Source: Pyrinomonadaceae bacterium
GTDB taxonomy: Bacteria; Acidobacteriota; Blastocatellia; Pyrinomonadales; Pyrinomonadaceae
NCBI GenBank assembly: GCA_044867025.1
Contig: JBIOUJ010000262.1
Coordinates: 717-64,716, forward strand
Reading direction: 5' to 3'
Length of the DNA: 64,000 nt
Shown here: positions 3,456 to 22,307 of the stretch, piece after piece
How the letters are laid out: each line of letters begins with the position of its first letter
Position numbering within the stretch: position 1 is the first letter of the stretch
Program-made: the position numbers and the translations under genes
The notes under the pieces: model-generated
What the model was told of the DNA's origin: nothing
Databases searched by the model: none
Seen by the model: only the letters and a program-made list of their open reading frames with translations

Positions 3456-3522
3456 ACATACCGGAGCACGGGACAACGCTTACTCCATTGGGTTGAATCC
3501 AACAGCCGCCTCGTATTGTTCC

Positions 3523-5520
3523 ATGTTCAAGACTCTTCTAATATGCCTGGCTTGCCTGACGGTCGTGGTGAACACTGCCGGCCAGGAGCGAGCAACCTAC
3601 TCCGCTGAGAAGCTTCAGCGTGAAGTAACTTTCCTGCTACTCGACAAAAACATCAACGACGTAACGAAGCAACTCGACAACGAAAGCCCTTCAACCGTTA
3701 ATTCCCTGCTTCGCCGCCTCGTCATCTACAGTCGCGCGGGCCAAACCGCCAACGTGCGCAAGACACTCGAACAATTGAGCGCCCATCCGGATTGGAAATG
3801 TCTCGTTGGTTCCGATCTGACATGGCTGATCCGGAATGCTGACGGGGGTGACTTCGGCGCACGCCGTCTCTACTACGAACGACTCTGCCCCGACGATATA
3901 AACGGCGGTGAAGAGTTCATCACACTTTGGGCCAAAAACGGCGATCTAAAAGAGCTCGACGCCTGGCTGGCTGAACGTTCGAATCGAAATGATGACTGGC
4001 TGATGTACCGCGTCGGTCTGCGCGCGAAGTCAGGCACAGTCGGCGAGGTGCTGGATGCGCTCGCCGCTGAGATAAGGGCAAACCCATCTGATTGGTGGCG
4101 CCTCGAGCGCTACCTGCGAGCAAACAATTACGCCGGCACAATACAAGACGTAAAGTGGCTCGCCGACACTTTCGTAGCCCGCACAGCCAGTGACTACTTC
4201 CAGTTCGCTGAACGCCTGCGACATTACTCGCCTCCAGCCGGCGCGAAACTTCTCGAGAAATCACTCGACCTTCCCTTCACCGACGCCGATGCGAAAGTGG
4301 TTAACGATTTAATAAACCGGTCCCTCTCGATCGGTCTATCAATCAAGATCAACGCCGAGAAGCAACTTCGCTATTGGACCAAACGAAGCCTCGCGGAAAC
4401 GTACCAGGCAATGAACCAGTCGCTCGCGGCTCAACCCCTGGTGGAAGAGCTCGTGTCAATGAAAGGCGACGACATATTACTGGCAGACGTCCATCAGTTA
4501 GCAGGCGCTGTGCAAGGCGGTTCGGGACAGCGAGTGGTAGAGACGAAGATTCTCGGTGATGAAGTCGCACGACGGTCCACATCCGAATACTGGCTCGAGC
4601 GCGCCGCGTATTACCACGGACGCAATGATTTCGGACTCGAACGGGATTCGTACCGGCAAGCCTTAGTCGCACTGCCACTCAGACCTGACGACAGCAACGC
4701 GCTAAACGAACGCTTCAACGTCGTCAGATCATTTGCTTTCTTTCTTGGAGAAAAGGACAACAACAAACTCGAGCTTGAAAAACTTTTGACACGCGAATTG
4801 AGCAGCGTTGCGCCGGAAACAGAGTACGCGTTTCAGATCGCCAGGCTGATTACCCAGAATGAGTTGAGAGTCGACGAGTTGCGAAACTCCCTCCTCGCCA
4901 AACGACCGTCGTTTTTCGCGCGGTTGCTGGATGGACGTCGCGAGTGGGGTGTCGAAGAAATGACGTTGATCGAAGACATCGTGCACCGTGAAGAAGTTCC
5001 ATCTGAGTTAAAAGAAAAAATCTGGTCCAGCCTCGAGGCCCTGGCTCGCAATCCGGGTTCAAGCCGCGCCTATCACCTCGCCGACGCGATGCAGCACAGT
5101 GACGAATGGCAACGAGCGATTCCGCTGTGGCGTGGTTACATCAAGCACGCTTCGCCCACGAGTTGGGAACGTTACAAGACCGACGGATTCGGTAAACTGT
5201 TCACCGCATACTGCCGCACAAAACAATGGCAGGACGCCGAGAAACTTTTGATCGCTGAACAGGATGCGTTCTGGCCTGTTTTGCCGAGTGCGCTGGCGGA
5301 GGTGGCGCTGGTTGCCGCACAGCAGAACGCCATCGCCGATGCGATGCGACTGTGGCGAAAGAGTACAAATCTGGACCGGCGAAACCTCGAAACCCTCGCT
5401 CAACTAGCTCAGACCAAGGCCCGACCGCAGTTGGTCGAAATGTACTCAAACATGAAAAAGGAAGATCCCCAATCCCGCATCCCAGACCTCGCCTTGCGAC
5501 TGTTGCAGCCGTCAAACTGA
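3523..5520 (+). CDS. Hypothetical secreted all-alpha (TPR-like) protein
   Basis: This is ORF 3493-5520. The ATG at 3523 gives a signal-like N-terminus, MFKTLLICLACLTVVVNTAGQ. The rest is helix-rich (W/R/E/L-rich) with no catalytic motif that I recognise. Confidence 0.6.
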   Translation: MFKTLLICLACLTVVVNTAGQERATYSAEKLQREVTFLLLDKNINDVTKQLDNESPSTVNSLLRRLVIYSRAGQTANVRKTLEQLSAHPDWKCLVGSDLTWLIRNADGGDFGARRLYYERLCPDDINGGEEFITLWAKNGDLKELDAWLAERSNRNDDWLMYRVGLRAKSGTVGEVLDALAAEIRANPSDWWRLERYLRANNYAGTIQDVKWLADTFVARTASDYFQFAERLRHYSPPAGAKLLEKSLDLPFTDADAKVVNDLINRSLSIGLSIKINAEKQLRYWTKRSLAETYQAMNQSLAAQPLVEELVSMKGDDILLADVHQLAGAVQGGSGQRVVETKILGDEVARRSTSEYWLERAAYYHGRNDFGLERDSYRQALVALPLRPDDSNALNERFNVVRSFAFFLGEKDNNKLELEKLLTRELSSVAPETEYAFQIARLITQNELRVDELRNSLLAKRPSFFARLLDGRREWGVEEMTLIEDIVHREEVPSELKEKIWSSLEALARNPGSSRAYHLADAMQHSDEWQRAIPLWRGYIKHASPTSWERYKTDGFGKLFTAYCRTKQWQDAEKLLIAEQDAFWPVLPSALAEVALVAAQQNAIADAMRLWRKSTNLDRRNLETLAQLAQTKARPQLVEMYSNMKKEDPQSRIPDLALRLLQPSN

Positions 5521-7955: not shown

Positions 7956-8845
7956 AAGGCCTTCGATCGATGCGGACTGCAAATAATGTTTGCCGAGTTC
8001 TGTTTTGGTTGTTCGTTATCGTGGTTTGCGTAAACGCGCAAAGCCCGAATCCTGATGCGACGCCACCACCTAAAGGCAATGGTATCTCCCTGGCTCCCGC
8101 GCGCTTTGAACTCGAGATGGGGCCCGGTTCTGAAACAACCGTGGTAGTGAATCTCGACTATCACAGCACTGCTGAAAACTCACAACCCGTTCGCATCGTC
8201 GCCAGCTTGAACGATTGGACCATCGATCGTGATGGTCAGGTGCAATTTGAAAAAGCTAACACGTTACCTAACTCCGCGAGTCCGTGGTTGATCTACAGTC
8301 CTGCGGAAACAACGGTGGTGCCCGGAAATCTTCATGCGATTCGAGTCACCATCACAGTACCGAAAGATGCAACTCCAGGAGATCACCTGTCAGCACTGAT
8401 CATCGAACAGCGACCGGACAGCCTGAAGTTCACTGAGGATCGTCGTCAGATGGTGATTCGATACCGAATGGCGGCGGTCTTCTACATCAAGGTTCCACAA
8501 CTTCGCCGGCAGGGCTCTTTGGAAAGCCTGCGCGCCGAAGCAAAGGAAGGCCAGGTAATCGTAACGCCCTTTCTCAAGAATGCCGGCAACAGTGTGATTC
8601 GTCCGCTTACTTCGCTGCGGGTGACGGACAGTTCCGGTTTGTCGGTTGTAGAGGTACCGCAAAGAGAATCGTTGCCGTTGCTTGGTGGTTCTGAACTGGT
8701 CCAGCCACTCGTCGTCGAGACGCGTCTCACGCCTGGAACTTACAACGTGAAATATCGTGTGGATTTTCAGGACGGGAGTAGACCGACGGAAGGTATTACT
8801 GAGTTGGTGATCCCGCAAGCGTCAAATGGCCCGTCCAACCGCTGA
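7952..8845 (+). CDS. Secreted two-domain beta protein, candidate PapD-like periplasmic chaperone
   Basis: A TTG at 7952 overlaps the TGA of paralog 3 (TTGA). An alternative ATG lies at 7970 (MRTANNVCRVLFWLFVIVVCVNAQS). The sequence reads ISLAPARFELEMGPGSETTVVVNL...WLIYSPAETTVVPGNLHAIRVTITVP, followed by a second beta domain. Its size (about 290 aa) and position directly after the subunit genes fit a pilus chaperone. Homology has not been verified. Confidence 0.5.
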   Translation: MKGLRSMRTANNVCRVLFWLFVIVVCVNAQSPNPDATPPPKGNGISLAPARFELEMGPGSETTVVVNLDYHSTAENSQPVRIVASLNDWTIDRDGQVQFEKANTLPNSASPWLIYSPAETTVVPGNLHAIRVTITVPKDATPGDHLSALIIEQRPDSLKFTEDRRQMVIRYRMAAVFYIKVPQLRRQGSLESLRAEAKEGQVIVTPFLKNAGNSVIRPLTSLRVTDSSGLSVVEVPQRESLPLLGGSELVQPLVVETRLTPGTYNVKYRVDFQDGSRPTEGITELVIPQASNGPSNR

Positions 8846-9266
8846 GAGTCTCGGGCTTCACGCGAATGAGTAATGTGACTTGCAATGCGTTGTTTGGAGA
8901 ATTGAGAGTGCCGCCTAGTGAGATGCGCGGTCCGCGTAATACCACGTCACCTTCCCGCCTTTTATCCACGACATTGACAGCCTGAGGCGAAACCAAACTT
9001 CCGGTCGCATGTACGTCGACCACCGATAGTCCACTCAATTCGGCCGTTTGTGACTCGAAGACAGCCGAGATCTTGAAACTGCTATTTGAACGCACAAGCA
9101 AGGGCACGCGGATGACGGAAGGCTGAGCCTCGTCGCCCGACAACGTTATTCGCGTAACGGAAAGAGCGACGGTCTCGCTAACCGTGCCGGTCAGCGTGGC
9201 AGTTTGCGCGGCGCTACTCGCAGGCGCCAAAAACACCACTGCTATCAATATGAAGATCTGACGCAT
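8796..9266 (-). CDS. Putative fibre subunit, paralog 4 (short, opposite strand)
   Basis: The signal peptide is MRQIFILIAVVFLAPASSAAQ. The sequence continues TATLTGTVSETVALSV, and VPLLVRSNSSFKIS matches the VP(L/I)xLRSN block of paralogs 1-3. Its 3' end overlaps the chaperone-like ORF by 50 nt in convergent orientation. Confidence 0.6.
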   Translation of the reverse strand: MRQIFILIAVVFLAPASSAAQTATLTGTVSETVALSVTRITLSGDEAQPSVIRVPLLVRSNSSFKISAVFESQTAELSGLSVVDVHATGSLVSPQAVNVVDKRREGDVVLRGPRISLGGTLNSPNNALQVTLLIRVKPETLSGWTGHLTLAGSPTQ

Positions 9267-9292
9267 CGGGATTTCGCGAACTTATACCACTT

Positions 9293-11800
9293 ATGATGTT
9301 CACAAAAAAGCACAAAAGGCACATTTGGGTTGGTTTTACCTTGTTGTTCCTTTTGTGCCTTTTTGTGGCTCCGAGTGTAGTCGCAGATCCCTCGCAAGGA
9401 TCCGTAATCATCGTCAACGAGCGTGCACTCGTTGGCCCCAACAGCGCTGCACAATTACGTGGCGGACGCCTGTATCTTCCCGTCGCCACCATTGCCGAGG
9501 CTCTCGGCGACACGCTCAGCTCTGACGCGACGCAGCGTATCGTGACGGTTCGTCGCCAGAACGGCACGATCGCGGTTTTCAACGCTCCGCTGAATGAAGT
9601 GCGCGAGAACGGCGCTGTTATTCTCACCGTTTCTGGTACGGCCGACCTGGTCTTCCCGCCAACGCCGTACGACTTGATGCTCCCTGCCGAGATCGTTGCC
9701 GCACTTCTCGACGTGACTGTCCGGCGGGACGAAAACCAGGCCATCGTTGTTGCGCGCAAAGGTCTAAAAGCCGAGACGGTTCGCACGGGCGATAAACACG
9801 TGCGTTTCGAACTCTTCCAACTCGAGTACGACTACAACTTCACTCGTTACAGTTCGGCCGGCGATCACAGTCTGGTGCTTCGCGGCACCGGTCGTGTCGG
9901 CGACGCAAGGTTGACGTTCATCGCTAACTCGGCGATCGGTGTGACGCAGAATTCGTCTCGCCCGAGTTTGCAGGGGGGGACCGTCAGACTTGACCGGCCG
10001 AATGGTCAGAGCTTCGTCGGCGGCGAGTTTGGTACTGGCACAGACGTAGAATTCCTGGGGGCGGCCGTACGCGGCGGGTTGGTCCAATTGCCTTTCGATC
10101 GCGTGCGACTGGATTTCTTCGGCGGGCAAACAACTTCCGGAATACCGGAGTTCGATCCAACTGCTGTCTTACGTCCGCTTTCAGCCCTTGCCGTCCGCTA
10201 CGACACAAAACTCTTTGGGGCGATCGCAACCACTGCGACACACGCTCCACGACACCGTGACTTCACGTTCTCGGCTGGCGGTATGCACTTCGGCGGCTCG
10301 AGTCGCAGAGGAGACTTGTTCGCCGGTGGCGTCAAGTACGTTTCGGCTTTTAATCGTTTTCAAGCTGATGTCGCGACGGGCCAGTTCTCAGGTATTAATC
10401 GCCACGGTACTCAAACAGATGGCACCGGCATGGCGATCAATCTCGCCGGGTCTTATCGCTTGTTCGAGCAGGTGGTCCTGCAAGGTCGTTATACTCACGT
10501 CAGCGAAAACTTTTTGAGTCCTCAATCCGGATTACACGATCCAACAAACTCTGCCGCAGCAAGCGTGAGCTGGCAGCCGAGACGATGGCTGACGGCAGCA
10601 CTCAGTGGAAGCACCGCGACCACACCGGGAAGGGCTGAACAATTCAATCGCTACGTAACCGCAACCGTAAATCTCACGCCGGACAATTCGTGGCCGTCTC
10701 TCTTTATCTCTCACACGCAGAGCGGCACGACACACTTGAGAAGCTCTGCGTTCACGTTGATCACGGCCACGAAAAAATTTGATCGCTGGCAATTATTTGT
10801 GAACGGCGCGCGTGTTAAGACATTCGGGAATGCGGATCTCAACCTGCAAGCCGGTGGGAACATCCGCATCAATGACTCAAATGCACTCGAGGTGAGCCAG
10901 TCGGTAGGCAGTCGCGGGCTTCTCAGTGGCATAGCGACGTGGCAGGTATCAAACTTACTGCGTCACCATGTCAGCTTCAGCGCAGGGCTGGGCTACACAC
11001 GAAGCAATTCCGCGCCGCTTTACACTTCGCAACACTTGTCAGCATTCGTTAAGTTGCCGCGGAACAACACACTGCAATTCAGTTACTTGCGAACGCAAAC
11101 CGGAACGACTGCACTGCTGACTTTGCACGGTTTGCTTTTCTCTCCCAAGCGCGGCGAGCGTGCGATCAATGGTCCACTCGCGGACTTGAATTCCTACGGC
11201 TCGGTATACGGCCGTGTTTACCAGGACGTGAACCTGAACGGGCGCTTTGATCCGGGTACAGATCAGCCACAGGCGAATGTGAACATCCGTGTCGACGGAA
11301 GCCGTTACGTGATATCAGATGTGAATGGCAATTTTCGGATTGAGAGCGTTGCGCGAGGTGAGCACACGGTCTATCTCGATCTGTTGTCCGTACGCGCTGA
11401 CCTGACGCTGCTGGACACAGTGCAGCAACTCATTACGATGGATTCGAGTCACGATCAGATCGTGAATTTTCGCGTCGTGCGCACAGGGCGAATCAGTGGG
11501 TTGGTGTGGCTTGATACAAATGAGAATGGACGTCTCGACGATGCGGAACGACCGTTAGCTGACGTGCGCGTCGTGACGGGCAGCGGCCGCGACACCTTAA
11601 CCGACGGAAATGGTTATTTCATCATCGGCGACCTGCCACCCGGCGAACACATCCTCTTGCTGGACGAGAAGACAATGCCCGAACGAACCACATCCGTCGC
11701 GGGCTCCCAAACCATCAAAGTCACGGGAGGCAACGAAACCACGACCACCTTCCCCGTCGCCCCCCTCCCCGACCAGATAAAAAAATTCCCGCGAGAGTAG
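9293..11800 (+). CDS. Large secreted or outer-membrane protein, candidate usher analogue
   Basis: The signal peptide is MMFTKKHKRHIWVGFTLLFLLCLFVAPSVVA. The N-terminal domain resembles a copper-amine-oxidase N-terminal-like fold (RGGRLYLPVATIAEALGDTL...IVTVRRQNGT). About 500 aa of alternating-polarity, beta-barrel-like sequence follow. Two C-terminal SdrD-B / carboxypeptidase-regulatory-like domains are present (VYQDVNLNGRFDPGTDQP...DVNGNFRIESVARGEHTVYLD and VWLDTNENGRLDDAERP...DGNGYFIIGDLPPGEHILLLD). Confidence 0.55.
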   Translation: MMFTKKHKRHIWVGFTLLFLLCLFVAPSVVADPSQGSVIIVNERALVGPNSAAQLRGGRLYLPVATIAEALGDTLSSDATQRIVTVRRQNGTIAVFNAPLNEVRENGAVILTVSGTADLVFPPTPYDLMLPAEIVAALLDVTVRRDENQAIVVARKGLKAETVRTGDKHVRFELFQLEYDYNFTRYSSAGDHSLVLRGTGRVGDARLTFIANSAIGVTQNSSRPSLQGGTVRLDRPNGQSFVGGEFGTGTDVEFLGAAVRGGLVQLPFDRVRLDFFGGQTTSGIPEFDPTAVLRPLSALAVRYDTKLFGAIATTATHAPRHRDFTFSAGGMHFGGSSRRGDLFAGGVKYVSAFNRFQADVATGQFSGINRHGTQTDGTGMAINLAGSYRLFEQVVLQGRYTHVSENFLSPQSGLHDPTNSAAASVSWQPRRWLTAALSGSTATTPGRAEQFNRYVTATVNLTPDNSWPSLFISHTQSGTTHLRSSAFTLITATKKFDRWQLFVNGARVKTFGNADLNLQAGGNIRINDSNALEVSQSVGSRGLLSGIATWQVSNLLRHHVSFSAGLGYTRSNSAPLYTSQHLSAFVKLPRNNTLQFSYLRTQTGTTALLTLHGLLFSPKRGERAINGPLADLNSYGSVYGRVYQDVNLNGRFDPGTDQPQANVNIRVDGSRYVISDVNGNFRIESVARGEHTVYLDLLSVRADLTLLDTVQQLITMDSSHDQIVNFRVVRTGRISGLVWLDTNENGRLDDAERPLADVRVVTGSGRDTLTDGNGYFIIGDLPPGEHILLLDEKTMPERTTSVAGSQTIKVTGGNETTTTFPVAPLPDQIKKFPRE
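9301..9369. repeat. Repeat family E (GCCACAAAAAGGCACAAAA motif), an inverted pair inside the signal-peptide coding region
   Basis: cacaaaaaagcacaaaaggcaca (9301-9323) and ccttttgtgcctttttgtggc (9349-9369) are mutually inverted. They encode the KKHKRH n-region and LLCLFVA h-region of the 835-aa protein. Confidence 0.7.
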
Positions 11801-11880
11801 CTGGAATCACGATCGAAACTGTTTCAAGGGTTCAGTGAGTTTCGTGTGGGCCAATGTCAAAAGATTCCGCAGATGTTCGG

Positions 11881-11909
11881 TTGCTTGTTTAAGAGTGCTA
11901 CTTTAGTAT
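11881..11909 (+). promoter_or_regulatory. Candidate promoter of the TA operon (near-leaderless)
   Basis: TTGCTT (11881-11886), a 17-nt spacer, then TAGTAT (11904-11909). The ATG of the antitoxin is at 11916, 7 nt after the -10 box. Confidence 0.35.
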
Positions 11910-11915
11910 TACTCT

Positions 11916-12173
11916 ATGCGAACCGAACTCGTTACCACTCTTAAGCGCCAAGCCACGGAACTCCTAAACCAACTGGAGAAAGATCGAGAGCCGATCCTGA
12001 TCACACAGCATGGCGTTCCATCAGCGTACTTAGTCGATGTTGAGACGTTTGAAACCCTGCAACGTCGCATGGCATTGCTTGAAGGTATTGCTCGTGGCGA
12101 AAAAGCTGTTGAAGAAGGCCGCTCCCTCACACACAAGCAGGCAAAGCGACGGATGGCTAGATGGCTGAAGTAA
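11916..12173 (+). CDS. Type II antitoxin, Phd/YefM family
   Basis: 85 aa: MRTELVTTLKRQATELLNQLEKDREPILITQHGVPSAYLVDVETFETLQ. This is the typical Phd/YefM N-terminal fold signature. It overlaps the downstream toxin gene by 13 nt. Confidence 0.85.
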   Translation: MRTELVTTLKRQATELLNQLEKDREPILITQHGVPSAYLVDVETFETLQRRMALLEGIARGEKAVEEGRSLTHKQAKRRMARWLK

Positions 12174-12478
12174 TCTGGGCCGAGCCTGCGCTCAGCGATC
12201 TTGATGCCATTGCCGACTACATCGCGTTGGATAATCCCGTGGCCGCACGCGGGCTGGTCCAACGGATCTTCGAGCACGTTGGCCATCTTGAAAGCCACCC
12301 GAAGCTAGGCTCAAAGCCCCCGGAACTCAAAGGCTGGCGTTATCGCCAGATTGTCGAGCCGCCATGTCGCATCTTCTACCGCGAGGATTCTGGCCGAGTC
12401 TTAATACTTCACGTCATGCGATCTGAACGATTGCTGAGGCCGGAGTTACTCAGCCAGCTAGACGAAAGTGGCTCATAA
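12161..12478 (+). CDS. Type II toxin, RelE/ParE superfamily (ParE-like)
   Basis: 105 aa: VIWAEPALSDLDAIADYIALDNPVAARGLVQRIFEHVGHLESHPKLG...YRQIVEPPCRIFYREDSGRVLILHVMRSER. This matches the ParE/RelE consensus layout. Confidence 0.85.
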   Translation: MAEVIWAEPALSDLDAIADYIALDNPVAARGLVQRIFEHVGHLESHPKLGSKPPELKGWRYRQIVEPPCRIFYREDSGRVLILHVMRSERLLRPELLSQLDESGS

Positions 12479-12510
12479 TAACCGTGGTAGGCATCATTGA
12501 AGCTTATATG

Positions 12511-12540
12511 AAAAAGGCCACTCGTAATGAGTGGCCTTTG
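12511..12540. terminator. Bidirectional rho-independent terminator between convergent genes
   Basis: aaaaaggccactc-gtaat-gagtggcctttg: an 8-bp GC-rich stem (12516-12523 / 12529-12536) flanked by an A-run and a T-run. It sits between the ParE stop (12478) and the esterase stop (12569). Confidence 0.7.
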
Positions 12541-12568
12541 TAGTCCGTTCTTGACACTTCTGACGAAG

Positions 12569-13792
12569 CTACTGCTTCTTCGTCGCTTGAGCCTCTTTTA
12601 ATTTCGCGTGGGCGCGTTCGTAGTTGGCCTTAAAGGTCGTAAAGGCTGGATCGTTGTTTTGTTCACCGAGGGTCCGCGCCTTATCGTAGAGCGGTTCCGC
12701 GAGCTCGATTCGCCCGCCGCGCTCATACGCTTCAGCAAGACTGTCGTAAACGTTCGCCGAGCCTGGATAACGTTCGATGTTCGTCTTGAAGACCGCGATC
12801 GCTTCTTCCGGTTTGCCGGCGCCGAGCAACTGGTAACCCACCTGGTTGATCAGGTTCTCGGGCGTCGGAATCGAATAGCCGAATTTCTCGCTCAACTTTT
12901 TGTAATGCTCGTCGATGCCCTTCAAGCCGCCGCTGAGCGCTCCGGTCTGAGGATCTCTCGGAGCTTGCCAACCTTCATAGATCTTTCGTAGTCCAAAATA
13001 ATGACTGCGCAGCACCACTGAACCATGATCTTCGTCAGACATGCGCTCAGCTTGCCATTCGAAACCCTTGATGTTCGTCTTCGAAAGCACTTCTTTAAAG
13101 AGATCGAAGTTCTCTGAGATTCCGCCCTGCTCGTTACCCAGTGACACAAACAGCGCCACGTTCTTCATTTCCTTCGTGTTCTTCAAGAAGTCTTCGGCGC
13201 GTTTCAACGTCTCACCGTTTTCCCATTGCAGCGAAGGACTGACCGCAACGTAGGAATTGAAGAGTCCGGGCTTGCTGATCATCGCGTGGATTGCGAAGAG
13301 CCCGCCGAGCGAGTGTCCGGCGAGAATGCGATACGGGTGAACTCGATATTGCTTCTCGATCTCAGGAATGAGCTCAGTCTCGAAGAACTTCAGAAAATTG
13401 TCTGAACCGCCACTCGTTGGAAATTGCAGTTCGCCGGCCGGGTTTTTGTTGGTCGACTTCGTTGGCGTCAGATCTCTTGTGCGGTCAGTGTTGGTGACGC
13501 CGACAACGATCAGATCCGAGACACGACCGTTCCGCGTCAGGAAGTCAATCGTGGCCGCCGTGTGGCCCATGTGTGCATCGCCATCGGTCATGTAGAGTAC
13601 GGGATAGCTAACCTTGTTCGCCTCATAGCCAACCGGAGTACGCACCAATATGGTCCTCTCTTCGCCCAGCACTGCTGATTTGAGCTTGAGTGTTTTTACG
13701 TTGCCTGTGATGCTTGGTTGTGCGATTGCGGCAGTTGCGATCAACAACAGGAGAGCAACGCAGGAGAGCAGACGAGTCAGATGAGTAGTCAT
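12569..13792 (-). CDS. Secreted alpha/beta-hydrolase (esterase family) with a C-terminal TPR-like tail
   Basis: The signal peptide is MTTHLTRLLSCVALLLLIATAAIA. The nucleophile elbow is GHSLGG. The core resembles a putative esterase or enterochelin-esterase (YPVLYMTDGD). The C-terminus has TPR-like helices (YPGSANVYDSLAEAYERGGRIELAEPLYDKA). Confidence 0.75.
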   Translation of the reverse strand: MTTHLTRLLSCVALLLLIATAAIAQPSITGNVKTLKLKSAVLGEERTILVRTPVGYEANKVSYPVLYMTDGDAHMGHTAATIDFLTRNGRVSDLIVVGVTNTDRTRDLTPTKSTNKNPAGELQFPTSGGSDNFLKFFETELIPEIEKQYRVHPYRILAGHSLGGLFAIHAMISKPGLFNSYVAVSPSLQWENGETLKRAEDFLKNTKEMKNVALFVSLGNEQGGISENFDLFKEVLSKTNIKGFEWQAERMSDEDHGSVVLRSHYFGLRKIYEGWQAPRDPQTGALSGGLKGIDEHYKKLSEKFGYSIPTPENLINQVGYQLLGAGKPEEAIAVFKTNIERYPGSANVYDSLAEAYERGGRIELAEPLYDKARTLGEQNNDPAFTTFKANYERAHAKLKEAQATKKQ

Positions 13793-14240
13793 AGTTCAAC
13801 TCCAAAAAAGTGAATTAATCTCCACCGAAAGTGTGGCAACGCAGCTTGGGGAGGCGGTGATAGTACTAGATTTGCTCATGAATTAGAAGGAATCCCGTAT
13901 TGAATCAGATCCGGAATGTTTGGTCGTAGCGGATCACTTCCGGAATTGGTCCATGCTTGTCAGAACTTGAGGGGCCGATAACTGACCTCTGGTGAATTGT
14001 ATATAGGATGTCGGAAGTCCTGTGTGGGACTGCGCGGGCCCTGTTGGACACTGATGGAGTTACTATCAGGTTTCACCAGAGGACGTATTGGACCACAACA
14101 AACCCTGATAGGGCCTCGTCGACCCCAGATATCCTTAGGCAGATCCCAGAAGCTCCTTGAGAGAAGAAAAAAGCAATTTGGCGGCGGAAATTAGGGATGC
14201 AGCGGATCCCAGAGATGGTCCACACAAATACTCACGCAAG

Positions 14241-14330: not shown

Positions 14331-14546
14331 TTACGGGTCGAGGTTGTCGAAGTTGCTTCCTCCGGCATCGACGCGGCGCACCAGTTCGGGTAGGCAAGGG
14401 TCATTTATTTCCAAACCGTAGCGGATCAAGCCTCGGATTCGGGCATCGATGGATTTGTCTCTTATGACTGACTGAGCACGTCGCTTGACTGCGTCGCTGA
14501 TGTAAGGTGTTTCTTCGCGCGTTGTTGCGCTACTATGACTGGCCAT
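14331..14546 (-). CDS. Hypothetical 71-aa protein, divergent from the WD40-Roc-phosphoesterase gene
   Basis: This is track ORF 14331-14642. The internal ATG at 14546 is preceded by gaaagga at good spacing, giving MASHSSATTREETPYISDAVKRRAQSVIRDKSIDARIRGLIRYGLEINDPCLPELVRRVDAGGSNFDNLDP. I recognise no family. Confidence 0.4.
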   Translation of the reverse strand: MASHSSATTREETPYISDAVKRRAQSVIRDKSIDARIRGLIRYGLEINDPCLPELVRRVDAGGSNFDNLDP

Positions 14547-14729
14547 GATCGTCATCCTTTCTCGGAAGGTTGATGGTCTAGGGTCGATTTTGTGTGTCAC
14601 CACAAGTCGGCCCGCTTCGTTTTGTTGATGGGTTGAGCGCACTATACCACAACTTGCAGTGCGCCGTTTCTCCTTTCTCCCTTTCCGACTTAGACCAAAT
14701 CAACGAGCTTGAGACCGAGAGAGAAGCAG

Positions 14730-17700
14730 ATGCCAAAGAAGAAGAAAGAGTCGCAGCAGCAACAAAACGTGCAGACAGCGAGTAGCCCAGATCCTCCCCT
14801 ACAGCTAAGACATACATTGCGAGGACATAGGCGTAATGTTTACAGGATGGCCCTGTCACCCGATGGTGAGACTTTGGCGTCATCTTCAAATGACAACACC
14901 GTTCGCCTTTGGGATTTGGAGACTGGGCGACTTCTGAAAACCCTTGACCATGAATCAACTGTTGTCTGCGTATGCTGGTCTCCAGATAGCAAGACATTGG
15001 CGACAGGTGGTAGGCGCCATAATAAGAGGGTGTCTCTCTGGGACGTTGTAACAGGAAAATACATTCGGATTCTGGAAGGGCATGACGAAATTGTCAACGA
15101 TGTTGCTTGGTCTCCGGACGGGAACATTCTGGCATCTTGTTCCCGGGATCAGACGGTCCTGCTGTGGGAGGCAGCGAGTGGATTCCCGAGAAAACTCAAA
15201 GGGCACTCAGGCGATGTCTTCAGCGTTGTGTGGTCGCCGGACAGCAAACGACTCTGTTCCGGGTCGTGGGACCATACCGTCAAGCTGTGGGATGCGGTGG
15301 GCGGCAAAGAGATCCGAACGCTCAAAGGACACAAGCAAGACGTGAATACAGTGGCATGGTCACCCAACGGTCACTACATAGCATCGGGGTCAGATGACCA
15401 CACTGTCCGCATCTGGGATGCCGAAACCGGGCAGCAGCAATACGTTCTGGAAGGTCACACGGCTCGCGTTGTTTCAGTTTCGTTTTTAGACAGCGGGCGC
15501 TTGCTGTGCTCATTGGCTATGAATGGTGCGGTGATCTTCTGGCCAACTGATACCTGGGCTCAAGTCGCACGAACAACTCTTAAGGGTAACAATTATTGGA
15601 TGTGCAACTTAGCGTGTCTTCCTGCTTTAACCTCAATAGCAGCAGTTAGCGAGAACCTGAACGAGATAGATATCTGGGAGCTAAATCTGAGCATTTTGCG
15701 CGGCGCGGAACAAGCTACTCCCACCGTCTTCTATGTGAACGCCAAAGCCGTCTTGCTGGGTGAGAGTAGCGTTGGTAAGTCAGGGCTAGGCATTCGTATT
15801 GCCGAAGGGGAGTTTCGCAGAACTGAATCGACACACGGCGCCCAGTTCTGGCATTTCCCTACAGAGCGCTTGCCTGCGCTGCCGCCTAACGTGCAAGCCG
15901 AGTTGACGCTGTGGGACTTGGCCGGTCAACCAGAATATCGCCTGACCCATCAACTCTTCCTCGACGACACAGACGCGGCGTTATTGCTATTCGACTGCGC
16001 CGATCCAAACGATCCATTTCGCGGTGTACCTTACTGGGCGAAAGTGCTCAAGAAGCATGCTCCGCCGCATGCCAAAAAGTTCCTGATCTCCGCCCGTTGT
16101 GACGTTAGCCCAGTTACGGTGGATCGTCTGACGATCAACCGGACGCTGGCCATGCATACACTGGACGAATATTTCAAGACTAGCGCAAAAACCGGTGAAG
16201 GCGTGGAACCGCTCTTTCATCGCCTGATGAATGAGATTCCCTGGGACAAACTGCCGCGCACCAGCACGCCTAGATTGTTCCAAGTGGTGCGAGAGTATCT
16301 GCTTGAGCGTAAGCAAGGAGACGCGAACCTGATGAGCATGGAAGAAGTTCACCAGGCGGTGGCGGCACGTTTTACCGAGCGTAGGGCCATGCAGGAGGAG
16401 TTGGACACGGTCGTCCAGTTATTACAGAGCCGCGGACTGGTCTTCCGACTTGATCCTCGCCCATCCGTGACGTTGGTCCTGCTTAAGCCGGAAAGGATCA
16501 ATCAATACGGCGGCTCGATAATCCAAGCAGCCCGGAATCATCCAGATGGGATCGGAGCCGTTGTGGAACGAGACGTGCTGACTGGCAATATTGCCTTCAC
16601 GGGCTTTGAGCGTCTAAGGCAAGACGAAGAGGCACTTGTGCTCGAAGGAACCGTTGAACTGCTGATTCGCCACGACTTGGGTTTCCGCGAGATGGGTTAC
16701 CTTGTCTTCCCGAGCCAGATCAACGTGACACGCCGGTCTCCAGACGAAGCGCATCCCCGCACTGAGGTGGCCTACCGTTTTTCGGGGGGCATCGAGACGA
16801 TTTATGCTTCGCTGGTGGTGCGTCTGAGTTACACGGATTATTTTCGGCGCGAGGATCAATGGAAACATGCAGTCGAGTTTTCGCGCGGTGGCAACCGGCT
16901 CGGGTTTTCGATGCGGCAGGTGGAAGAAGGCACAGGTGAGTTAGAGATTTATTTTCAACCGGGAGTGAGCGCGTTTGATCGTGTAACGTTTATTAGGTTT
17001 GTTACCGATCACCTGCGCACCAAGGGCATCGATATTCACGAACAAATTCGGCTTTATTGCCCCAAGTGTTCCAAGGAAGTCACCAATCGTGAAGCTATTG
17101 AAGCGCGCGTCCGCGATGGAAAGCTGGACATCCCCTGCCAATTTTGCGATACGGCGGTTGTGATTCCTACGAGTGTCGAGGAGATCTATCGGCGTGATCC
17201 CTCGCTGGGCAAGAAACAGAAGCAACTGGCTGAGACCGTCGAGCAACGCACGGAGTTAGAGGTCAAACAGTTCCGCGCCGACCAGCAGCAATACACGGCA
17301 ACTGAAGATCACCGAATTCACATGCTGCACCTGTCGGATCTCCATTGTGAAAATGGGACGTTCGCTGGTGTTTGGCGAACACAACTGGAAAGTGATCTCA
17401 TCCAGGAACTCGGCGTTCGTCGTCTCAAGTATCTGATCATCTCTGGCGACATTGCCAACCGCTCGACAGAGAAGGAATACGACGCCGCTTTTTCGATGGT
17501 GGACGGATTGGTGAAGCGGTTCGGGTTGGATGCCAGCCGGGTTGTGATCGTGCCCGGCAATCACGACCTGAATTGGGATCTATCTGAAGAAGCCTATCGG
17601 TTTGTCGCGAAACGCAAGCTACCTACTCCGTTACCGGAAGATCGCTGTATCTCAGCCGGGGACGCTGGTGCGTTGCTTCGTGATGACACTCTGTATCGCG

Positions 17701-18344
17701 AACGATTTGCTCATTTCAACACCTACTTCTATCGCCGCGTCTATAGCGGAGAGGATTACCCGTCCGACTATGGCAACCAATTCGTGTTCCTCGAACGTTC
17801 TGAAGATCGCATTCTATTCCTGGGTCTCAACTCAAGTTGGCAACTGGACCATCACTTCCGAACTAGAGCAAGTATTCACATGCCTGCGCTCGTCCAAGCG
17901 TTGGACCGCTTACATGATCGCACTTTCGACGGCTGGCTGAAAATTGCTGTGTGGCATCACCCTGTCATCGGCAAAGAGATGATGAATGACGAGTTCATGC
18001 AAATACTCGCAGTCCATGGCTTCCAGATCTGCATGCATGGACACATCCACGAAGCCGTCGAAGGTTTTTATCACTACGACAATCGCCGCAACATCCATAT
18101 CATCGGCGCCGGTACGTTTGGAGCCCCAGCCCACGAACAGGTCACTGGGATTCCGCTGCAATACAATTTGCTGACCTTCGATCCCGAGACAGGCGAAATG
18201 ACCATCAACACACGTAAGAAGGAAAAGCCACATGGCGCATGGTCAGCTGATGCTCGCTGGGGTGATAAGAACGATCCGAAAGCGTGGTACCGCTTCACTG
18301 TGCCAAAATACGTCGGCGACAGGAAGCAGAACCGTCCGGTGTGA
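14730..18344 (+). CDS. WD40 (7 blades) / Roc small GTPase / COR-like / zinc ribbon / calcineurin-like metallophosphoesterase fusion protein (ROCO-type)
   Basis: This is track ORF 14709-18344, and the first ATG is at 14730 (MPKKKKES). All residue numbers here are track-ORF numbering (subtract 7 for numbering from the ATG at 14730).
- WD blades: VRLWD, VSLWD, VLLWE, VKLWD, VRIWD, VIFWP, IDIWE (aa ~35-330, nt ~14811-15698).
- GTPase motifs: G1 GESSVGKSG, G3 DLAGQPEY, G4-like SARCD, G5 TSAKTG (nt ~15726-16253).
- COR-like region: aa ~516-780.
- Zinc ribbon: CPKC...CQFC (nt ~17058-17150).
- Metallophosphoesterase motifs: LSDLH, SGDIANRS, VPGNHD, VWHHP, MHGHIHE (nt ~17310-18218). Confidence 0.85.
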   Translation: MPKKKKESQQQQNVQTASSPDPPLQLRHTLRGHRRNVYRMALSPDGETLASSSNDNTVRLWDLETGRLLKTLDHESTVVCVCWSPDSKTLATGGRRHNKRVSLWDVVTGKYIRILEGHDEIVNDVAWSPDGNILASCSRDQTVLLWEAASGFPRKLKGHSGDVFSVVWSPDSKRLCSGSWDHTVKLWDAVGGKEIRTLKGHKQDVNTVAWSPNGHYIASGSDDHTVRIWDAETGQQQYVLEGHTARVVSVSFLDSGRLLCSLAMNGAVIFWPTDTWAQVARTTLKGNNYWMCNLACLPALTSIAAVSENLNEIDIWELNLSILRGAEQATPTVFYVNAKAVLLGESSVGKSGLGIRIAEGEFRRTESTHGAQFWHFPTERLPALPPNVQAELTLWDLAGQPEYRLTHQLFLDDTDAALLLFDCADPNDPFRGVPYWAKVLKKHAPPHAKKFLISARCDVSPVTVDRLTINRTLAMHTLDEYFKTSAKTGEGVEPLFHRLMNEIPWDKLPRTSTPRLFQVVREYLLERKQGDANLMSMEEVHQAVAARFTERRAMQEELDTVVQLLQSRGLVFRLDPRPSVTLVLLKPERINQYGGSIIQAARNHPDGIGAVVERDVLTGNIAFTGFERLRQDEEALVLEGTVELLIRHDLGFREMGYLVFPSQINVTRRSPDEAHPRTEVAYRFSGGIETIYASLVVRLSYTDYFRREDQWKHAVEFSRGGNRLGFSMRQVEEGTGELEIYFQPGVSAFDRVTFIRFVTDHLRTKGIDIHEQIRLYCPKCSKEVTNREAIEARVRDGKLDIPCQFCDTAVVIPTSVEEIYRRDPSLGKKQKQLAETVEQRTELEVKQFRADQQQYTATEDHRIHMLHLSDLHCENGTFAGVWRTQLESDLIQELGVRRLKYLIISGDIANRSTEKEYDAAFSMVDGLVKRFGLDASRVVIVPGNHDLNWDLSEEAYRFVAKRKLPTPLPEDRCISAGDAGALLRDDTLYRERFAHFNTYFYRRVYSGEDYPSDYGNQFVFLERSEDRILFLGLNSSWQLDHHFRTRASIHMPALVQALDRLHDRTFDGWLKIAVWHHPVIGKEMMNDEFMQILAVHGFQICMHGHIHEAVEGFYHYDNRRNIHIIGAGTFGAPAHEQVTGIPLQYNLLTFDPETGEMTINTRKKEKPHGAWSADARWGDKNDPKAWYRFTVPKYVGDRKQNRPV

Positions 18345-18458
18345 CGCGCTTCAAAGCATCGAGGCGATGGGTCGCCAACGTTGCGAAAGCAAACGAAGTG
18401 GGTCAGAACATCATTTGTTGTTCTCGGCGTTCTAGAACTTATATATAATCCGTTGCAT

Positions 18459-18734
18459 ATGACACTATTCGATTTACTGATCCTGCTGCTGGTTGCGGGA
18501 ATTTGTGGAGCACTTGGACAGGCAATCACGGGTTTTTCGCGCGGTGGCTGCCTGGTGTCGATCGCGCTGGGTTTTGTCGGTGCGGTAGTGGGCATGTGGT
18601 TATCGCGAGCGTTGGGCCTGCCGGAGCTCTTTGCGATTCAAATTGGCGCCACTAACTTTCCCATAGTGTGGTCCATTATCGGCTCCGCGCTGTTTGTCGC
18701 TGTGATCGCGTTGTTAACAAGGCGTTATTATTAA
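18459..18734 (+). CDS. GlsB/YeaQ/YmgE-family small membrane stress protein
   Basis: The in-frame ATG at 18459 gives MTLFDLLILLLVAGICGALGQAITGFSRGGCLVSIALGFVGAVVGMWL..., which is the typical transglycosylase-associated (GlsB/YeaQ) pattern. Confidence 0.75.
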   Translation: MTLFDLLILLLVAGICGALGQAITGFSRGGCLVSIALGFVGAVVGMWLSRALGLPELFAIQIGATNFPIVWSIIGSALFVAVIALLTRRYY

Positions 18735-20136: not shown

Positions 20137-21465
20137 TTATTCTCTCCGTTTCGTCCGGCTCCGAGTTGCTGCGACGTCTACCTGCCGTGCCGCTTCGTCG
20201 ATCTTATCGATGTTGACCTTCTCTTCAACCGCACGATGATCGCGACGCTGGATACGCCACAGTTGTTGTTGGTGAGCGAGTTCACCTGCAAGCGGTTCGT
20301 AAATCTCACGGCGTCCCTCGTCGTCAGCGTAGCCCCATAATCCGCTGTAGCAGTGACGATCGTCACCCCAGCCTGGATAGTCGATGATCGGATAGAGACA
20401 CAACCCTTCCAACTGCACGCCGGCCGCCGCAGCAGCGCGTGCTTCCTGACCGATGTAGCGCAGCCACGATGGACGAGCGTCGCCCTCAATACCTGTTTCG
20501 GCGATGAAGACCGGACGGCGATAACGCTCGTACACCTCGCTCAGCATCTCGCGAACGGGCCGGTGCAGAGGGTGCGACGGCGGAAGCAGCACATCCTTAC
20601 GACGACGCGATGGCGGCGTGTTTGGGTCTTGATGGATCCACTGATTGTTTGAGTAGTAGTTGACGCCAATGACGTCGAGGTATTCCGGGCGCCCGCCAAG
20701 CTCCGGACAGAACCTGCCGGAGATCATGTCCCACGCCTGGAACTGCGACTGCCGGTACGCTTCAGCAGCGGGCGCTTCCTCCGGGTAATCCGGATCGATA
20801 GCGATGTGAATGATAGGCTCAGCGTGAAAGATGCGTGCGCTGGGATCGACTTCGAGCACGGCCTGCGTCGCCGCGATCGCCGCGCGCACGAGTTGCGCCT
20901 TGAGCTCTGGACCACGTCCCTTGGCGAACGGGTTCAAGAAGCCCGCATCGCCGCCACCCCACGACACGAACGACATCTCGTTAACGGGCGTGACATAGAT
21001 TGGCCCGCCTGTCTCTTCGAGGATGACGCGTGCGGTGGCACGTGCAAAGCGCTCGAAGCGATCGACGAAGGCTGCACCCCAGATGTTTAGACCGTCTGGC
21101 CAACCGTAGTGATGTAAATCCCAAATGATCTCTGTCTGCGTGCGGCGCGCCGCCTGAAGCATTGGCACCAGGCTGGAAAAATCGTAGCGAAATGGTGTCT
21201 TCTCGATCAGGTGCCAGCGCACGCCGTCGCGGGCCGTGCGGATCCCGGCATCCTGGAGACGCGTGTAATCCTGTAACGCCAATTCGTCGTGTCGTGTGGA
21301 TGCGATGAGGTCGAGGCGTTGCCCGGCAAAGCGACCAAGCGCTTTACGGCGGGGCAGCCGGTGTGTCGAACACTCAAAACCGCCCATCCAAAAGCTCTGA
21401 AAGATCGAACTGTCTGCTTGATTGCGTGAATTATCCGTTTCAACAAACGTGCTGCTCATAGCCAT
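20137..21465 (-). CDS. Clan GH-A (GH1-like) TIM-barrel glycoside hydrolase
   Basis: FWMGGFECSTH at the N-terminus, an acid/base-type VNEMS motif, and a nucleophile-type IAETG motif. The ATG is at 21465 (the track start at 21474 is a GTG). Confidence 0.6.
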   Translation of the reverse strand: MAMSSTFVETDNSRNQADSSIFQSFWMGGFECSTHRLPRRKALGRFAGQRLDLIASTRHDELALQDYTRLQDAGIRTARDGVRWHLIEKTPFRYDFSSLVPMLQAARRTQTEIIWDLHHYGWPDGLNIWGAAFVDRFERFARATARVILEETGGPIYVTPVNEMSFVSWGGGDAGFLNPFAKGRGPELKAQLVRAAIAATQAVLEVDPSARIFHAEPIIHIAIDPDYPEEAPAAEAYRQSQFQAWDMISGRFCPELGGRPEYLDVIGVNYYSNNQWIHQDPNTPPSRRRKDVLLPPSHPLHRPVREMLSEVYERYRRPVFIAETGIEGDARPSWLRYIGQEARAAAAAGVQLEGLCLYPIIDYPGWGDDRHCYSGLWGYADDEGRREIYEPLAGELAHQQQLWRIQRRDHRAVEEKVNIDKIDEAARQVDVAATRSRTKRRE

Positions 21466-21506
21466 AATGTACACAAAGAATCACAAAGAACTTTTTCAAT
21501 GAACTA

Positions 21507-22307
21507 TCAAAAGTATGCGCCGATGTAGCTCGCCGTCGCCAACAACACATGACCGAAAACATGCGCGATCATCGCTGCTTCCAAGCCGTACTTCCAATAC
21601 AGATAACCTGTGACGACACCGAAAGCAGAGTTGGCAACGATTACAAAAATAATCACTGGGGCGGTAAGCTCGGGCAGTAACACCAGCGCGGCAGGAAGAT
21701 GGCCCACGCCAAACATGAAGGCGGAAAGCAATATCGCCAGGACGAAACAGATCGTTGTCGGTTTGGTGGCTCGTCTTTGTAGAACACGCCATGCGACCCA
21801 GACGAGCAAGGTCATGAGCCCCCACCGAATCAGAAGCTCTTCGGTGATGCCTCCGTACAGAAGGCGCATCGGAATCGGAAAAAGTCCCTGCAATTTGTGA
21901 ATGCGCTCTGTGGTCTCCTTCATCAAGAACGGCATGACCACTGCTGAAGTCAAAACCACACAAAACGTTCCAACAATTCCGCCTATTAGACCAGGCAAGA
22001 CTTGTGGCCTTAAAGCGGGAAAGCATCTTCCTCCACCAGCCGCAAGACACTCTGCGAAAGGCGCGGATAATCCGACTTTTGGAGATAGCGCGATCCCGAT
22101 TAGTACCGCAGCCAGCAGTATGACCGCCGGTTGAATTAAACCGAGGATCTTGATCAGCGGCGTGATAGTTGGAACTTCTGTTTGGGCGGGAAGAAGCGCT
22201 ATTAATTTGGACAGGTCAATTAGCAGCAAAGACACGACGCCTGCCATGCCTGACAAAAACAGAATCCAGAAGAGTCGTGTCTTCACGTAAAGCGTATCCT
22301 GCCACAA
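21507..22307 (-). CDS. CPBP-family intramembrane glutamic endopeptidase (CAAX protease-like)
   Basis: A multi-TM protein with ITEELLIRWG (EExxxR), SAFMFGVGH (FxxxH) and the AHVFGHVL motif. The start codon is uncertain (TTG at 22307). Confidence 0.75.
   Translation of the reverse strand: MWQDTLYVKTRLFWILFLSGMAGVVSLLLIDLSKLIALLPAQTEVPTITPLIKILGLIQPAVILLAAVLIGIALSPKVGLSAPFAECLAAGGGRCFPALRPQVLPGLIGGIVGTFCVVLTSAVVMPFLMKETTERIHKLQGLFPIPMRLLYGGITEELLIRWGLMTLLVWVAWRVLQRRATKPTTICFVLAILLSAFMFGVGHLPAALVLLPELTAPVIIFVIVANSAFGVVTGYLYWKYGLEAAMIAHVFGHVLLATASYIGAYF

Follow-up and report, generated by a model that had tools for sequence, protein, structure and literature searches.

The tandem of a Roc (Ras-of-complex) GTPase and a COR domain defines the ROCO proteins. 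This group includes LRRK2, which is implicated in Parkinson's disease, and DAPK1, which acts in cell death, and how Roc-COR controls the output domain is still debated. To our knowledge, none of the prokaryotic Roco proteins has a demonstrated physiological role, and literature searches turned up no experimental work on one in the context of defence. Kaur, Iyer, Burroughs and Aravind (eLife 2021) predicted counter-invader systems centred on the AP-GTPase, with the arrangement LRR, AP-GTPase and COR (PMC8195603, Fig. 6D), and described no fewer than 24 effector domains that alternate on bacterial AP-GTPase-COR proteins. Among the architectures in the accompanying source data are 'BetaPropeller+AP-GTPase+Calcineurin' (NUN13817.1, Myxococcales), 'TIR+BetaPropeller+AP-GTPase' and 'TIR+LRR+AP-GTPase+COR+Calcineurin' (PMC8195603). 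Here, we analyzed a WD40 / Roc-COR / zinc ribbon / metallophosphoesterase protein encoded in a stretch of 64,000 nucleotides from a Pyrinomonadaceae bacterium (Acidobacteriota, contig JBIOUJ010000262.1); this whole stretch is called the window below. An earlier note on this DNA held that the known outputs of ROCO proteins are kinases or nothing and that no characterized protein with this architecture was known. The former is wrong in view of the effector domains just mentioned and the novelty implied by the latter was overstated, since the architecture is already catalogued in the same source data and the conflict role has already been predicted computationally.

The effector at the C-terminus of this protein also has described relatives. 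DS-8 (metallophosphatase and NACHT) and DS-9 (metallophosphatase and HAD) are validated anti-phage systems that need the phosphatase catalytic residues (PMC13092281). In PUA-Cal-HAD, which shares the two-gene metallophosphatase and HAD layout of DS-9, the Calcineurin-CE domain turns dNDP into dNMP and splits NAD+ into NMN plus AMP, the outcome being dNTP depletion and abortive infection (bioRxiv 10.64898/2026.01.15.699771). From the comparative data presented here, the window protein is probably a conflict or anti-phage protein of NLR-like design, in which a single chain is organized around a ROCO chassis.

The gene occupies positions 14730..18344 of the forward strand, stop codon included, and encodes 1,204 amino acids (aa). 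The open reading frame (ORF) in the ORF listing spans 14709..18344 (+), and the ATG at 14730, which also gives 1,204 aa, is the start that gene callers chose on a pair of metagenome contigs identical to this DNA (Logan SRR30692707 and SRR30692730); residues are numbered from this ATG and all domains lie on the forward strand. The N-terminal part is a seven-bladed WD40 beta-propeller, the presumed sensor (aa ~22-325, 14793..15704). Pfam scored six stretches of it (E=2.4e-66), the seventh, degenerate blade is readable by eye in the translation, and many other propeller families also match. The Roc small GTPase domain follows (aa 335-504, 15732..16241), identified by Pfam Ras (80 bits), by Roc PF08477 (63.6 bits, cut-off 27, aa 339-503), by the motifs GESSVGKSG (aa 344), DLAGQPEY (396), SARCD (454) and TSAKTG (484), and by AlphaFold2 (AF2) modelling. 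Downstream of the region assigned below to COR, a four-cysteine zinc ribbon, CPKC-x22-CQFC (aa 774-814, 17049..17171; motifs at aa 777 and 803), and a long charged helical linker (aa 815-862, 17172..17315) connect the chassis to a calcineurin-like metallophosphoesterase of the conflict-effector type (aa 863-1204, 17316..18341). This last domain was recognized by Pfam (Metallophos 47.6 bits, cut-off 21.5, aa ~865-1110), PADLOC, NCBIfam and AF2, and contains the motifs SDLH (869), GDIANRS (906), GNHD (943), WHHP (1075) and GHIHE (1104). All eleven motifs that the earlier note had read from the sequence were found where it had placed them, and its description of seven WD-type blades and of a complete small-GTPase motif set agrees with the Pfam matches and the conserved G1-G5 elements. 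Family hidden Markov model (HMM) searches of the 1,204-aa protein found no NACHT, NB-ARC or nSTAND match, and Ras/Roc is its sole NTPase.

The region between the GTPase and the effector had been described as COR-like, a claim that failed at the level of sequence and held at the level of structure. Pfam families, COR included, gave zero matches in aa 500-860 when the protein was searched at E<=1, and the isolated middle segment (aa 500-862) produced only noise (E>0.1); of the four expected HMM assignments, WD40, Roc and Metallophos were matched and COR was not. When aa 325-1204 were searched by sequence against the PDB, the matches were all Rab and Ras GTPases, and no Roco sequence was among them. 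An alignment of aa 335-862 with 97 homologues at 29-85% identity (98 sequences) was then the input for AF2 model 1, which had a mean pLDDT of 91.9 and a pTM of 0.89. In order, the model contains the GTPase, winged-helix-rich helical units, an alpha/beta domain, the zinc ribbon and a 33-residue helix. When it was compared with the PDB by Foldseek, ranks 1-24 were all ROCO proteins, aligned over 506-592 columns. The top match was LRRK1 (8e04, E=3.5e-20, 554 columns), and the others included LRRK2 (8fo9, 8u7h, 7lht and others), Methanosarcina barkeri Roco2 (4wnr) and the RocCOR of C. tepidum (3dpu_A, E=4e-18, TM-score 0.63/0.68, 509 columns; also 6hlu_A). Matches to GTPase-only Rab and Ras structures began at rank 25 and covered ~170 columns, with a root-mean-square deviation of ~2.4 A for Rab. 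The presence of ROCO proteins alone in ranks 1-24 indicates that the ROCO-defining Roc-COR tandem is present, and the failure of the COR HMMs is explained by the identity to the matched ROCO structures, which is only 13-16%. On the strength of this model, the middle region is a true, divergent COR domain, with a winged-helix-rich COR-A followed by an alpha/beta COR-B (aa ~505-773, 16242..17048, boundaries approximate), and the protein a bona fide ROCO protein. The AlphaFold and Foldseek check that the earlier note had proposed thus gave a confident model whose Roc-COR is nearest to LRRK1, LRRK2 and prokaryotic Roco.

The characterized Roco proteins (C. tepidum Roco, M. barkeri Roco2, LRRK1, LRRK2 and DAPK1) and the window protein are alike in that Roc-COR superposes over ~510-590 columns on the ROCO structures, and LRRK2 has WD40 repeats too. 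However, the propeller of the window protein is N-terminal and not C-terminal, a zinc ribbon follows COR, and the output is a phosphoesterase and not a kinase. The low sequence identity leaves Pfam COR unmatched, and the window Roc keeps the canonical switch-II Gln. Both AF2 models fold the linker as one long helix (residues 490-522 in model 1 and 10-42 in model 2, the latter covering aa 815-1204). A linker of comparable kind precedes the TIR and DUF4365 effectors of relatives.

Conservation was assessed in the 98-sequence alignment for Roc, COR and the zinc ribbon. The G1 residues G344, G349 and K350 of GxxxxGK(S/T) were kept in 96/98 sequences, switch-I T368 in 90/98, and D396, G399 and Q400 of the DxxGQ motif in 97/98, 96/98 and 95/98, respectively. 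G4 is an ARxD variant of NKxD (R456 in 89/98, D458 in 95/98), G5 (T484-S485-A486) was kept in 90-93/98, and the four zinc-ribbon cysteines, C777, C780, C803 and C806, in 96-98/98. For the phosphoesterase, two sets were used, one of 51 sequences at 31-80% identity and one of 121 close sequences. All five PF00149 motifs that provide the dinuclear metal ligands (DxH, GD, GNH[D/E], H and GHxH) are present, and D870, H872, D907, N944, H945, H1076/H1077, H1105 and H1107 were kept in 46-51/51 and 117-121/121 sequences. The five motifs that had been described as intact are indeed so, with their His and Asp ligands conserved among homologues, and the phosphoesterase is predicted from its sequence to be catalytically intact. 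The Arg of GDIANRS, on the other hand, had been taken for the retained phosphate-binding Arg of GDxxDRG. This position is variable among the 121 close sequences (R 42, H 36, Y 21, F 5), and the argument therefore fails.

The protein belongs to a large family in which the terminal enzyme is exchanged. More than 120 full-length homologues at 53-79% identity were found, carrying no source names other than 'metallophosphoesterase', 'small GTP-binding protein' or 'WD40 repeat'. When COR and the zinc ribbon (aa 506-862) served as the query of an exhaustive HMMER search, 1,379 clusters at 50% identity were retrieved with E<=1e-3, 332 of them with E<=1e-30. A word-indexed search for homologues of the middle region gave nothing beyond close relatives and gene fragments, with no new architectures. 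WD40, Roc and COR occurred together in 105 of 138 new representatives, and the phosphoesterase in only 22. The alternative termini recognized by Pfam were TIR_2 (N- or C-terminal), DUF4365, Guanylate_cyc, AAA_15/AAA_21, nSTAND2, Pkinase with FHA, alpha-amylase and a ParA-like domain. Of 126 representatives with heads or tails, which were drawn from the top of the hit list and do not form an unbiased census, ~40 had a C-terminal TIR, ~51 had DUF4365, a domain that we regard as nuclease-like (31 of these had an N-terminal TIR as well), 22 had the phosphoesterase and 10 the cyclase. The WD40-Roc-COR-zinc ribbon chassis is thus shared by a large family whose terminal enzyme is swapped among TIR, DUF4365, phosphoesterase and class III cyclase. 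The reverse also occurs, in that other chassis in reference genomes carry the phosphoesterase cassette (40-55% identity). The forms include metallophosphoesterase (MPE)+CHAT+NB-ARC+TPR in Calothrix PCC 7103, NACHT+HEAT+MPE in Moorena producens and Pelatocladus, TIR+MPE+NACHT+FGE-sulfatase, MPE+NACHT, MPE+FGE-sulfatase, MPE with another GTPase, and stand-alone forms. The fusions to NB-ARC/CHAT/TPR, to NACHT/HEAT, to TIR with NACHT and FGE-sulfatase, and to FGE-sulfatase alone are from cyanobacteria and Desulfobacterales (loci L018, L027, L029, L032, L043 and L044). The occurrence of one chassis with varied effectors and of one cassette on varied chassis indicates that, within the toolkit of conflict systems, both are mobile modules.

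The propeller is the fastest-evolving part of the protein, with identities of 35-65% among homologues vs 60-90% for Roc, COR, zinc ribbon and phosphoesterase. Homologues of ~860-880 aa that seemed to lack WD40 were considered as a natural variant, and this was rejected for at least one of them (P0075, 881 aa). Its start was mis-called, because its locus (L010, 9053-10150) encodes a propeller in frame upstream with no intervening stop. Other short homologues (~820-1000 aa) and fragments may likewise be mis-calls or split genes.

Relatives at 58-81% identity, measured from Roc to the phosphoesterase, were found in Terracidiphilus, Chthoniobacterales (81%), Cyanobacteria, Dehalococcoidia, Thiotrichales and Methanobacterium, and more in Ca. 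Kentron, Methanoregula, Bacillota and Anaerolineae. Among the groups represented are Acidobacteriota, Verrucomicrobiota, Cyanobacteria, Chloroflexota, Gammaproteobacteria and methanogens, and such patchy occurrence across domains of life points to horizontal transfer. Each neighbourhood examined was different; the gene was always solo, with no conserved synteny, and it travels horizontally as a solo gene. One archaeal copy adjoins UvrD-PDDEXK, an ABC-3C-type system (CTD10/11, MC6/7, DUF2326), an HD protein and a CoiA nuclease. In other single loci, a Pol-beta nucleotidyltransferase and IS21, an nSTAND3+TPR protein, or a SNF2 helicase or NB-ARC/TPR protein were located nearby. On conjugative plasmids of the cultured strains Nostoc sp. 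C057 and N. flagelliforme CCNUN1, the copy lies between a MoxR/'SAV_2336 N-terminal' (VMAP-type) system, NACHT and transposases. PADLOC HMMs matched several of the 185 flanking ORFs of 18 loci, including PDC-M68A/B (4e-176), pVip (1e-70) and DpdE (2e-195), as well as ZorD-like, PD-T4-6, Csa3 and type II methyltransferases. A search of 50,697 phage genomes yielded no homologue, a result that is neutral for a defence function.

Two observations on these loci deserve separate mention. On the Nostoc plasmids, the ROCO-phosphoesterase protein appears to continue into, or directly precede, a C-terminal NACHT module (1,731-aa coding sequence; NACHT by RefSeq product names alone), at 7981-13176 of the locus from N. 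flagelliforme plasmid pNFSY08 (L051) and at 8005-14069 of that from the Nostoc sp. C057 plasmid (L050). This form would join the ROCO chassis to a DS-8-like phosphoesterase-NACHT unit, with two NTPase switches in one protein. In the locus that holds P0075 (L010), a separate Metallophos protein of 575 aa and, after it, an HNH nuclease of 170 aa (16182-18502), ~3.5 kb downstream of the homologue, may be another small conflict module.

The reaction catalyzed by the phosphoesterase was considered next to its closest relatives. The best PADLOC match was PDLC00736 (4e-21), followed by PDC-S60 (1e-14). With NCBIfam, DS9_1 scored 62 bits (5e-17) and DS8 59.7 bits (1e-16), figures that compare with equivalog cut-offs of 420 and 790. 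The cut-offs of these DS-8/DS-9 equivalogs (NF053861, NF053862) apply to whole proteins and the phosphoesterase domain alone aligns, so the window protein has a homologous domain without being a member. In Foldseek searches with AF2 model 2 (pLDDT 89.2), the nearest structure was B. subtilis YydB (1.6e-17), and the phosphodiesterases GpdQ (~5e-10) and Rv0805 (~2e-9) were also close (TMt 0.63-0.72). Since these are the nearest in structure and Calcineurin-CE acts on dNDP and NAD+, we consider a phosphodiesterase or pyrophosphatase that acts on nucleotides or cofactors more likely than a nuclease, the substrate itself being a prediction. The opposite possibility keeps the same immune sensor and switch and makes the phosphoesterase a nuclease of the Mre11/SbcD or PolD-DP1 type that acts on DNA or RNA. 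PDLC00736 is labelled 'Effector / Endonuclease', Mre11 (3thn and 1ii7) and the PolD DP1 exonuclease are among the structural matches, and sister proteins carry DUF4365, taken as nuclease-like, at the same position. These structural matches (E 1e-5 to 1e-4, TM-score ~0.3-0.38; for 3thn, E=1.6e-5 and 0.38/0.46, and for DP1, ~1e-4) are, however, far behind YydB, GpdQ and Rv0805, Pfam detected no Mre11-type capping or DNA-binding domain, and the one characterized conflict-type calcineurin domain mentioned above cuts dNDP and NAD+, not nucleic acids. We therefore regard a nuclease as unlikely. A role as a protein phosphatase is also unlikely. The idea, raised in the earlier note, of a phosphoprotein phosphatase that is the mirror image of the LRRK-type ROCO kinases draws on the shared PPP fold superfamily and on a ROCO chassis like that of LRRK1/2. 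PP5 and PP2A are nevertheless marginal in the structure search (E 3e-4 to 3e-3, ranks 23-37), at E ~1e-3 against the close GpdQ, Rv0805 and YydB. The PPP signature (GDxHG / GDxVDRG / GNHE with a conserved Arg) is missing, as motif II is GDIANRS with a variable Arg, and the detectable relatives of the cassette are all conflict-type phosphoesterases. Such a mirror image is highly improbable.

Another explanation leaves defence aside altogether. The protein could be a housekeeping or regulatory GTP-gated phosphodiesterase of cyclic nucleotides (cAMP, cGMP or c-di-NMP), in which a partner bound by the propeller would control second-messenger turnover. The structural likeness to Rv0805, a class III cyclic nucleotide monophosphate phosphodiesterase, and to GpdQ, together with the ~10 of 126 relatives that have a class III adenylate/guanylate cyclase as effector, would suit signalling, and the immediate neighbours in the window are mostly ordinary (esterase, stress membrane protein, SDR), with the Phd/ParE pair as the sole conflict-type neighbour. 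Both points weigh against a conflict function, and others must be added to them. The defence role is drawn wholly from comparative genomics; the scan of flanking ORFs with defence HMMs had no matched background control and is suggestive, with no enrichment claimed; part of the WD40 divergence could be due to relaxed constraint, as is typical for repeat domains; and the DS-8/DS-9 scores are so far under the equivalog cut-offs that substrate specificity cannot be carried over. Against the signalling explanation, TIR and DUF4365, both typical of conflict systems, are the most frequent alternative effectors, the distribution is patchy across domains at 58-81% identity with no conserved synteny, copies are found on conjugative plasmids and in conflict islands, the cassette is akin to validated anti-phage phosphoesterases, and a fast-evolving propeller argues against a fixed cellular partner. 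Signalling of this kind has, in our assessment, a low probability. The sensor-switch-effector conflict module proposed in the earlier note remains the best fit to the comparative data because of effector swapping, the fast-evolving WD40, the patchy cross-domain spread, the plasmid and conflict-island sites and the homology to DS-8/DS-9.

If the protein is a conflict module, its operation can be sketched as follows. The propeller would bind an invader-derived protein or an infection cue. Binding would release autoinhibition, and Roc-COR would move to a GTP-bound or dimeric/oligomeric state, as in characterized Roco proteins. The zinc ribbon and the long helix would pass on the change and the phosphoesterase would be switched on. 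The effector would most probably cut phosphodiester or pyrophosphate bonds of (d)NDP/(d)NTP, NAD+ and possibly cyclic nucleotides, and collapse of the metabolite pool would abort the infection. GTP hydrolysis via the canonical DxxGQ Gln400 could then reset the switch.

Like the AP-GTPase counter-invader systems, the window protein has COR after its Roc (AP-GTPase), N-terminal repeats that evolve rapidly and an effector at the C-terminus that varies. It has the core, the diversifying repeat sensor and the variable conflict effector by which that class is recognized. It differs from the class described in the text of PMC8195603, which has LRR sensors; propeller-led entries are listed there without COR and are not discussed. 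What the present, wholly computational analysis adds is a divergent COR domain shown at the level of structure in the propeller-led subgroup, a near-invariant zinc ribbon after COR and an effector tally for the subgroup. Also new is evidence that the propeller is hypervariable, that the gene has passed between domains of life and that plasmids carry it. The design can also be compared with that of the STAND defence proteins (Avs, bNACHT), which likewise combine a repeat sensor, an NTPase switch and a swappable effector, with TIR, nucleases and calcineurin-like domains in common, and to whose NACHT or NB-ARC modules the phosphoesterase cassette is fused in other genomes. Unlike them, the window protein has a TRAFAC Ras-like GTPase as its NTPase, so that it is NLR-like in its working and not an NLR. 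DS-8 is similar in that a single protein pairs a homologous calcineurin-like effector with a P-loop NTPase switch. However, in comparison with DS-8/DS-9, the switch of the window protein is a Ras-like Roc-COR GTPase and not a STAND NACHT ATPase or a PUA sensor, its effector is C-terminal, it is not an orthologue, and no HAD partner is encoded near the gene according to the ORF listing and the gene calls on the identical contigs. A more specific proposal is possible and is put forward tentatively. The protein may be the first prokaryotic immune receptor to be demonstrated with a ROCO GTPase switch in place of a STAND ATPase, in which a hypervariable WD40 propeller would read phage proteins directly, and GTP-dependent dimerization or oligomerization would license a nucleotide- or NAD+-degrading phosphoesterase, exchanged in sister proteins for TIR, DUF4365 or a cyclase.

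The gene's neighbours in the window are an esterase-TPR gene, a Transgly_assoc membrane protein, an uncharacterized 202-aa protein and an SDR. Two genes upstream, an 85-aa Phd/YefM antitoxin overlaps a 105-aa ParE toxin in a type II toxin-antitoxin pair (11916-12478, +). The flanking toxin-antitoxin pair that the earlier note had described therefore exists, but it is not directly adjacent, as the esterase-TPR gene (12569-13792) intervenes. The same note had considered a divergent 71-aa ORF (14331-14546, reverse strand), which is called as a gene on the identical contigs, as a possible partner. This ORF has no Pfam, PADLOC or NCBIfam match and is without counterpart at all 47 other loci, and it is an orphan or spurious ORF and not a partner. 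Promoter and terminator scans around the ROCO gene gave chance-level results, and no tRNAs or Rfam families were found in the window.

Elsewhere in the window, a Tc (ABC) toxin locus of two giant ORFs occupies 46712-63455 (-). One encodes a TcA-like protein of 3,098 aa with ABC_toxin_N, neuraminidase-like and TcA_TcB_BD (3e-120) domains, and the other a TcB/TcC-type fusion of 2,527 aa with SpvB (5e-114), TcdB middle domains, FG-GAP and RHS. The window also encodes a GGDEF-EAL protein (31172-33400, -), an Rce1/CPBP-type intramembrane protease (21507-22307, -) and two ORFs of 675 and 445 aa without a Pfam match (3493-5520, +, and 20137-21474, -).

Specialists in conflict-system genomics would not be surprised by this protein, because the idea has already been published as a computational prediction. 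It is, however, a good experimental target. The family is compact, with a single gene and a readable output, as phosphoesterase, TIR, DUF4365 or cyclase is carried on one chassis, and experiments are feasible because cultured Nostoc strains carry full-length homologues on plasmids. If the protein is an anti-phage sensor, it would offer a tractable genetic system for Roc-COR activation. It would also represent a new GTPase-based class beside STAND/NLR-type bacterial immunity and another calcineurin effector that targets nucleotide pools. If the window protein is a ROCO immune receptor, the LRRK/DAPK-type proteins would gain a functional root in bacterial and archaeal immunity.

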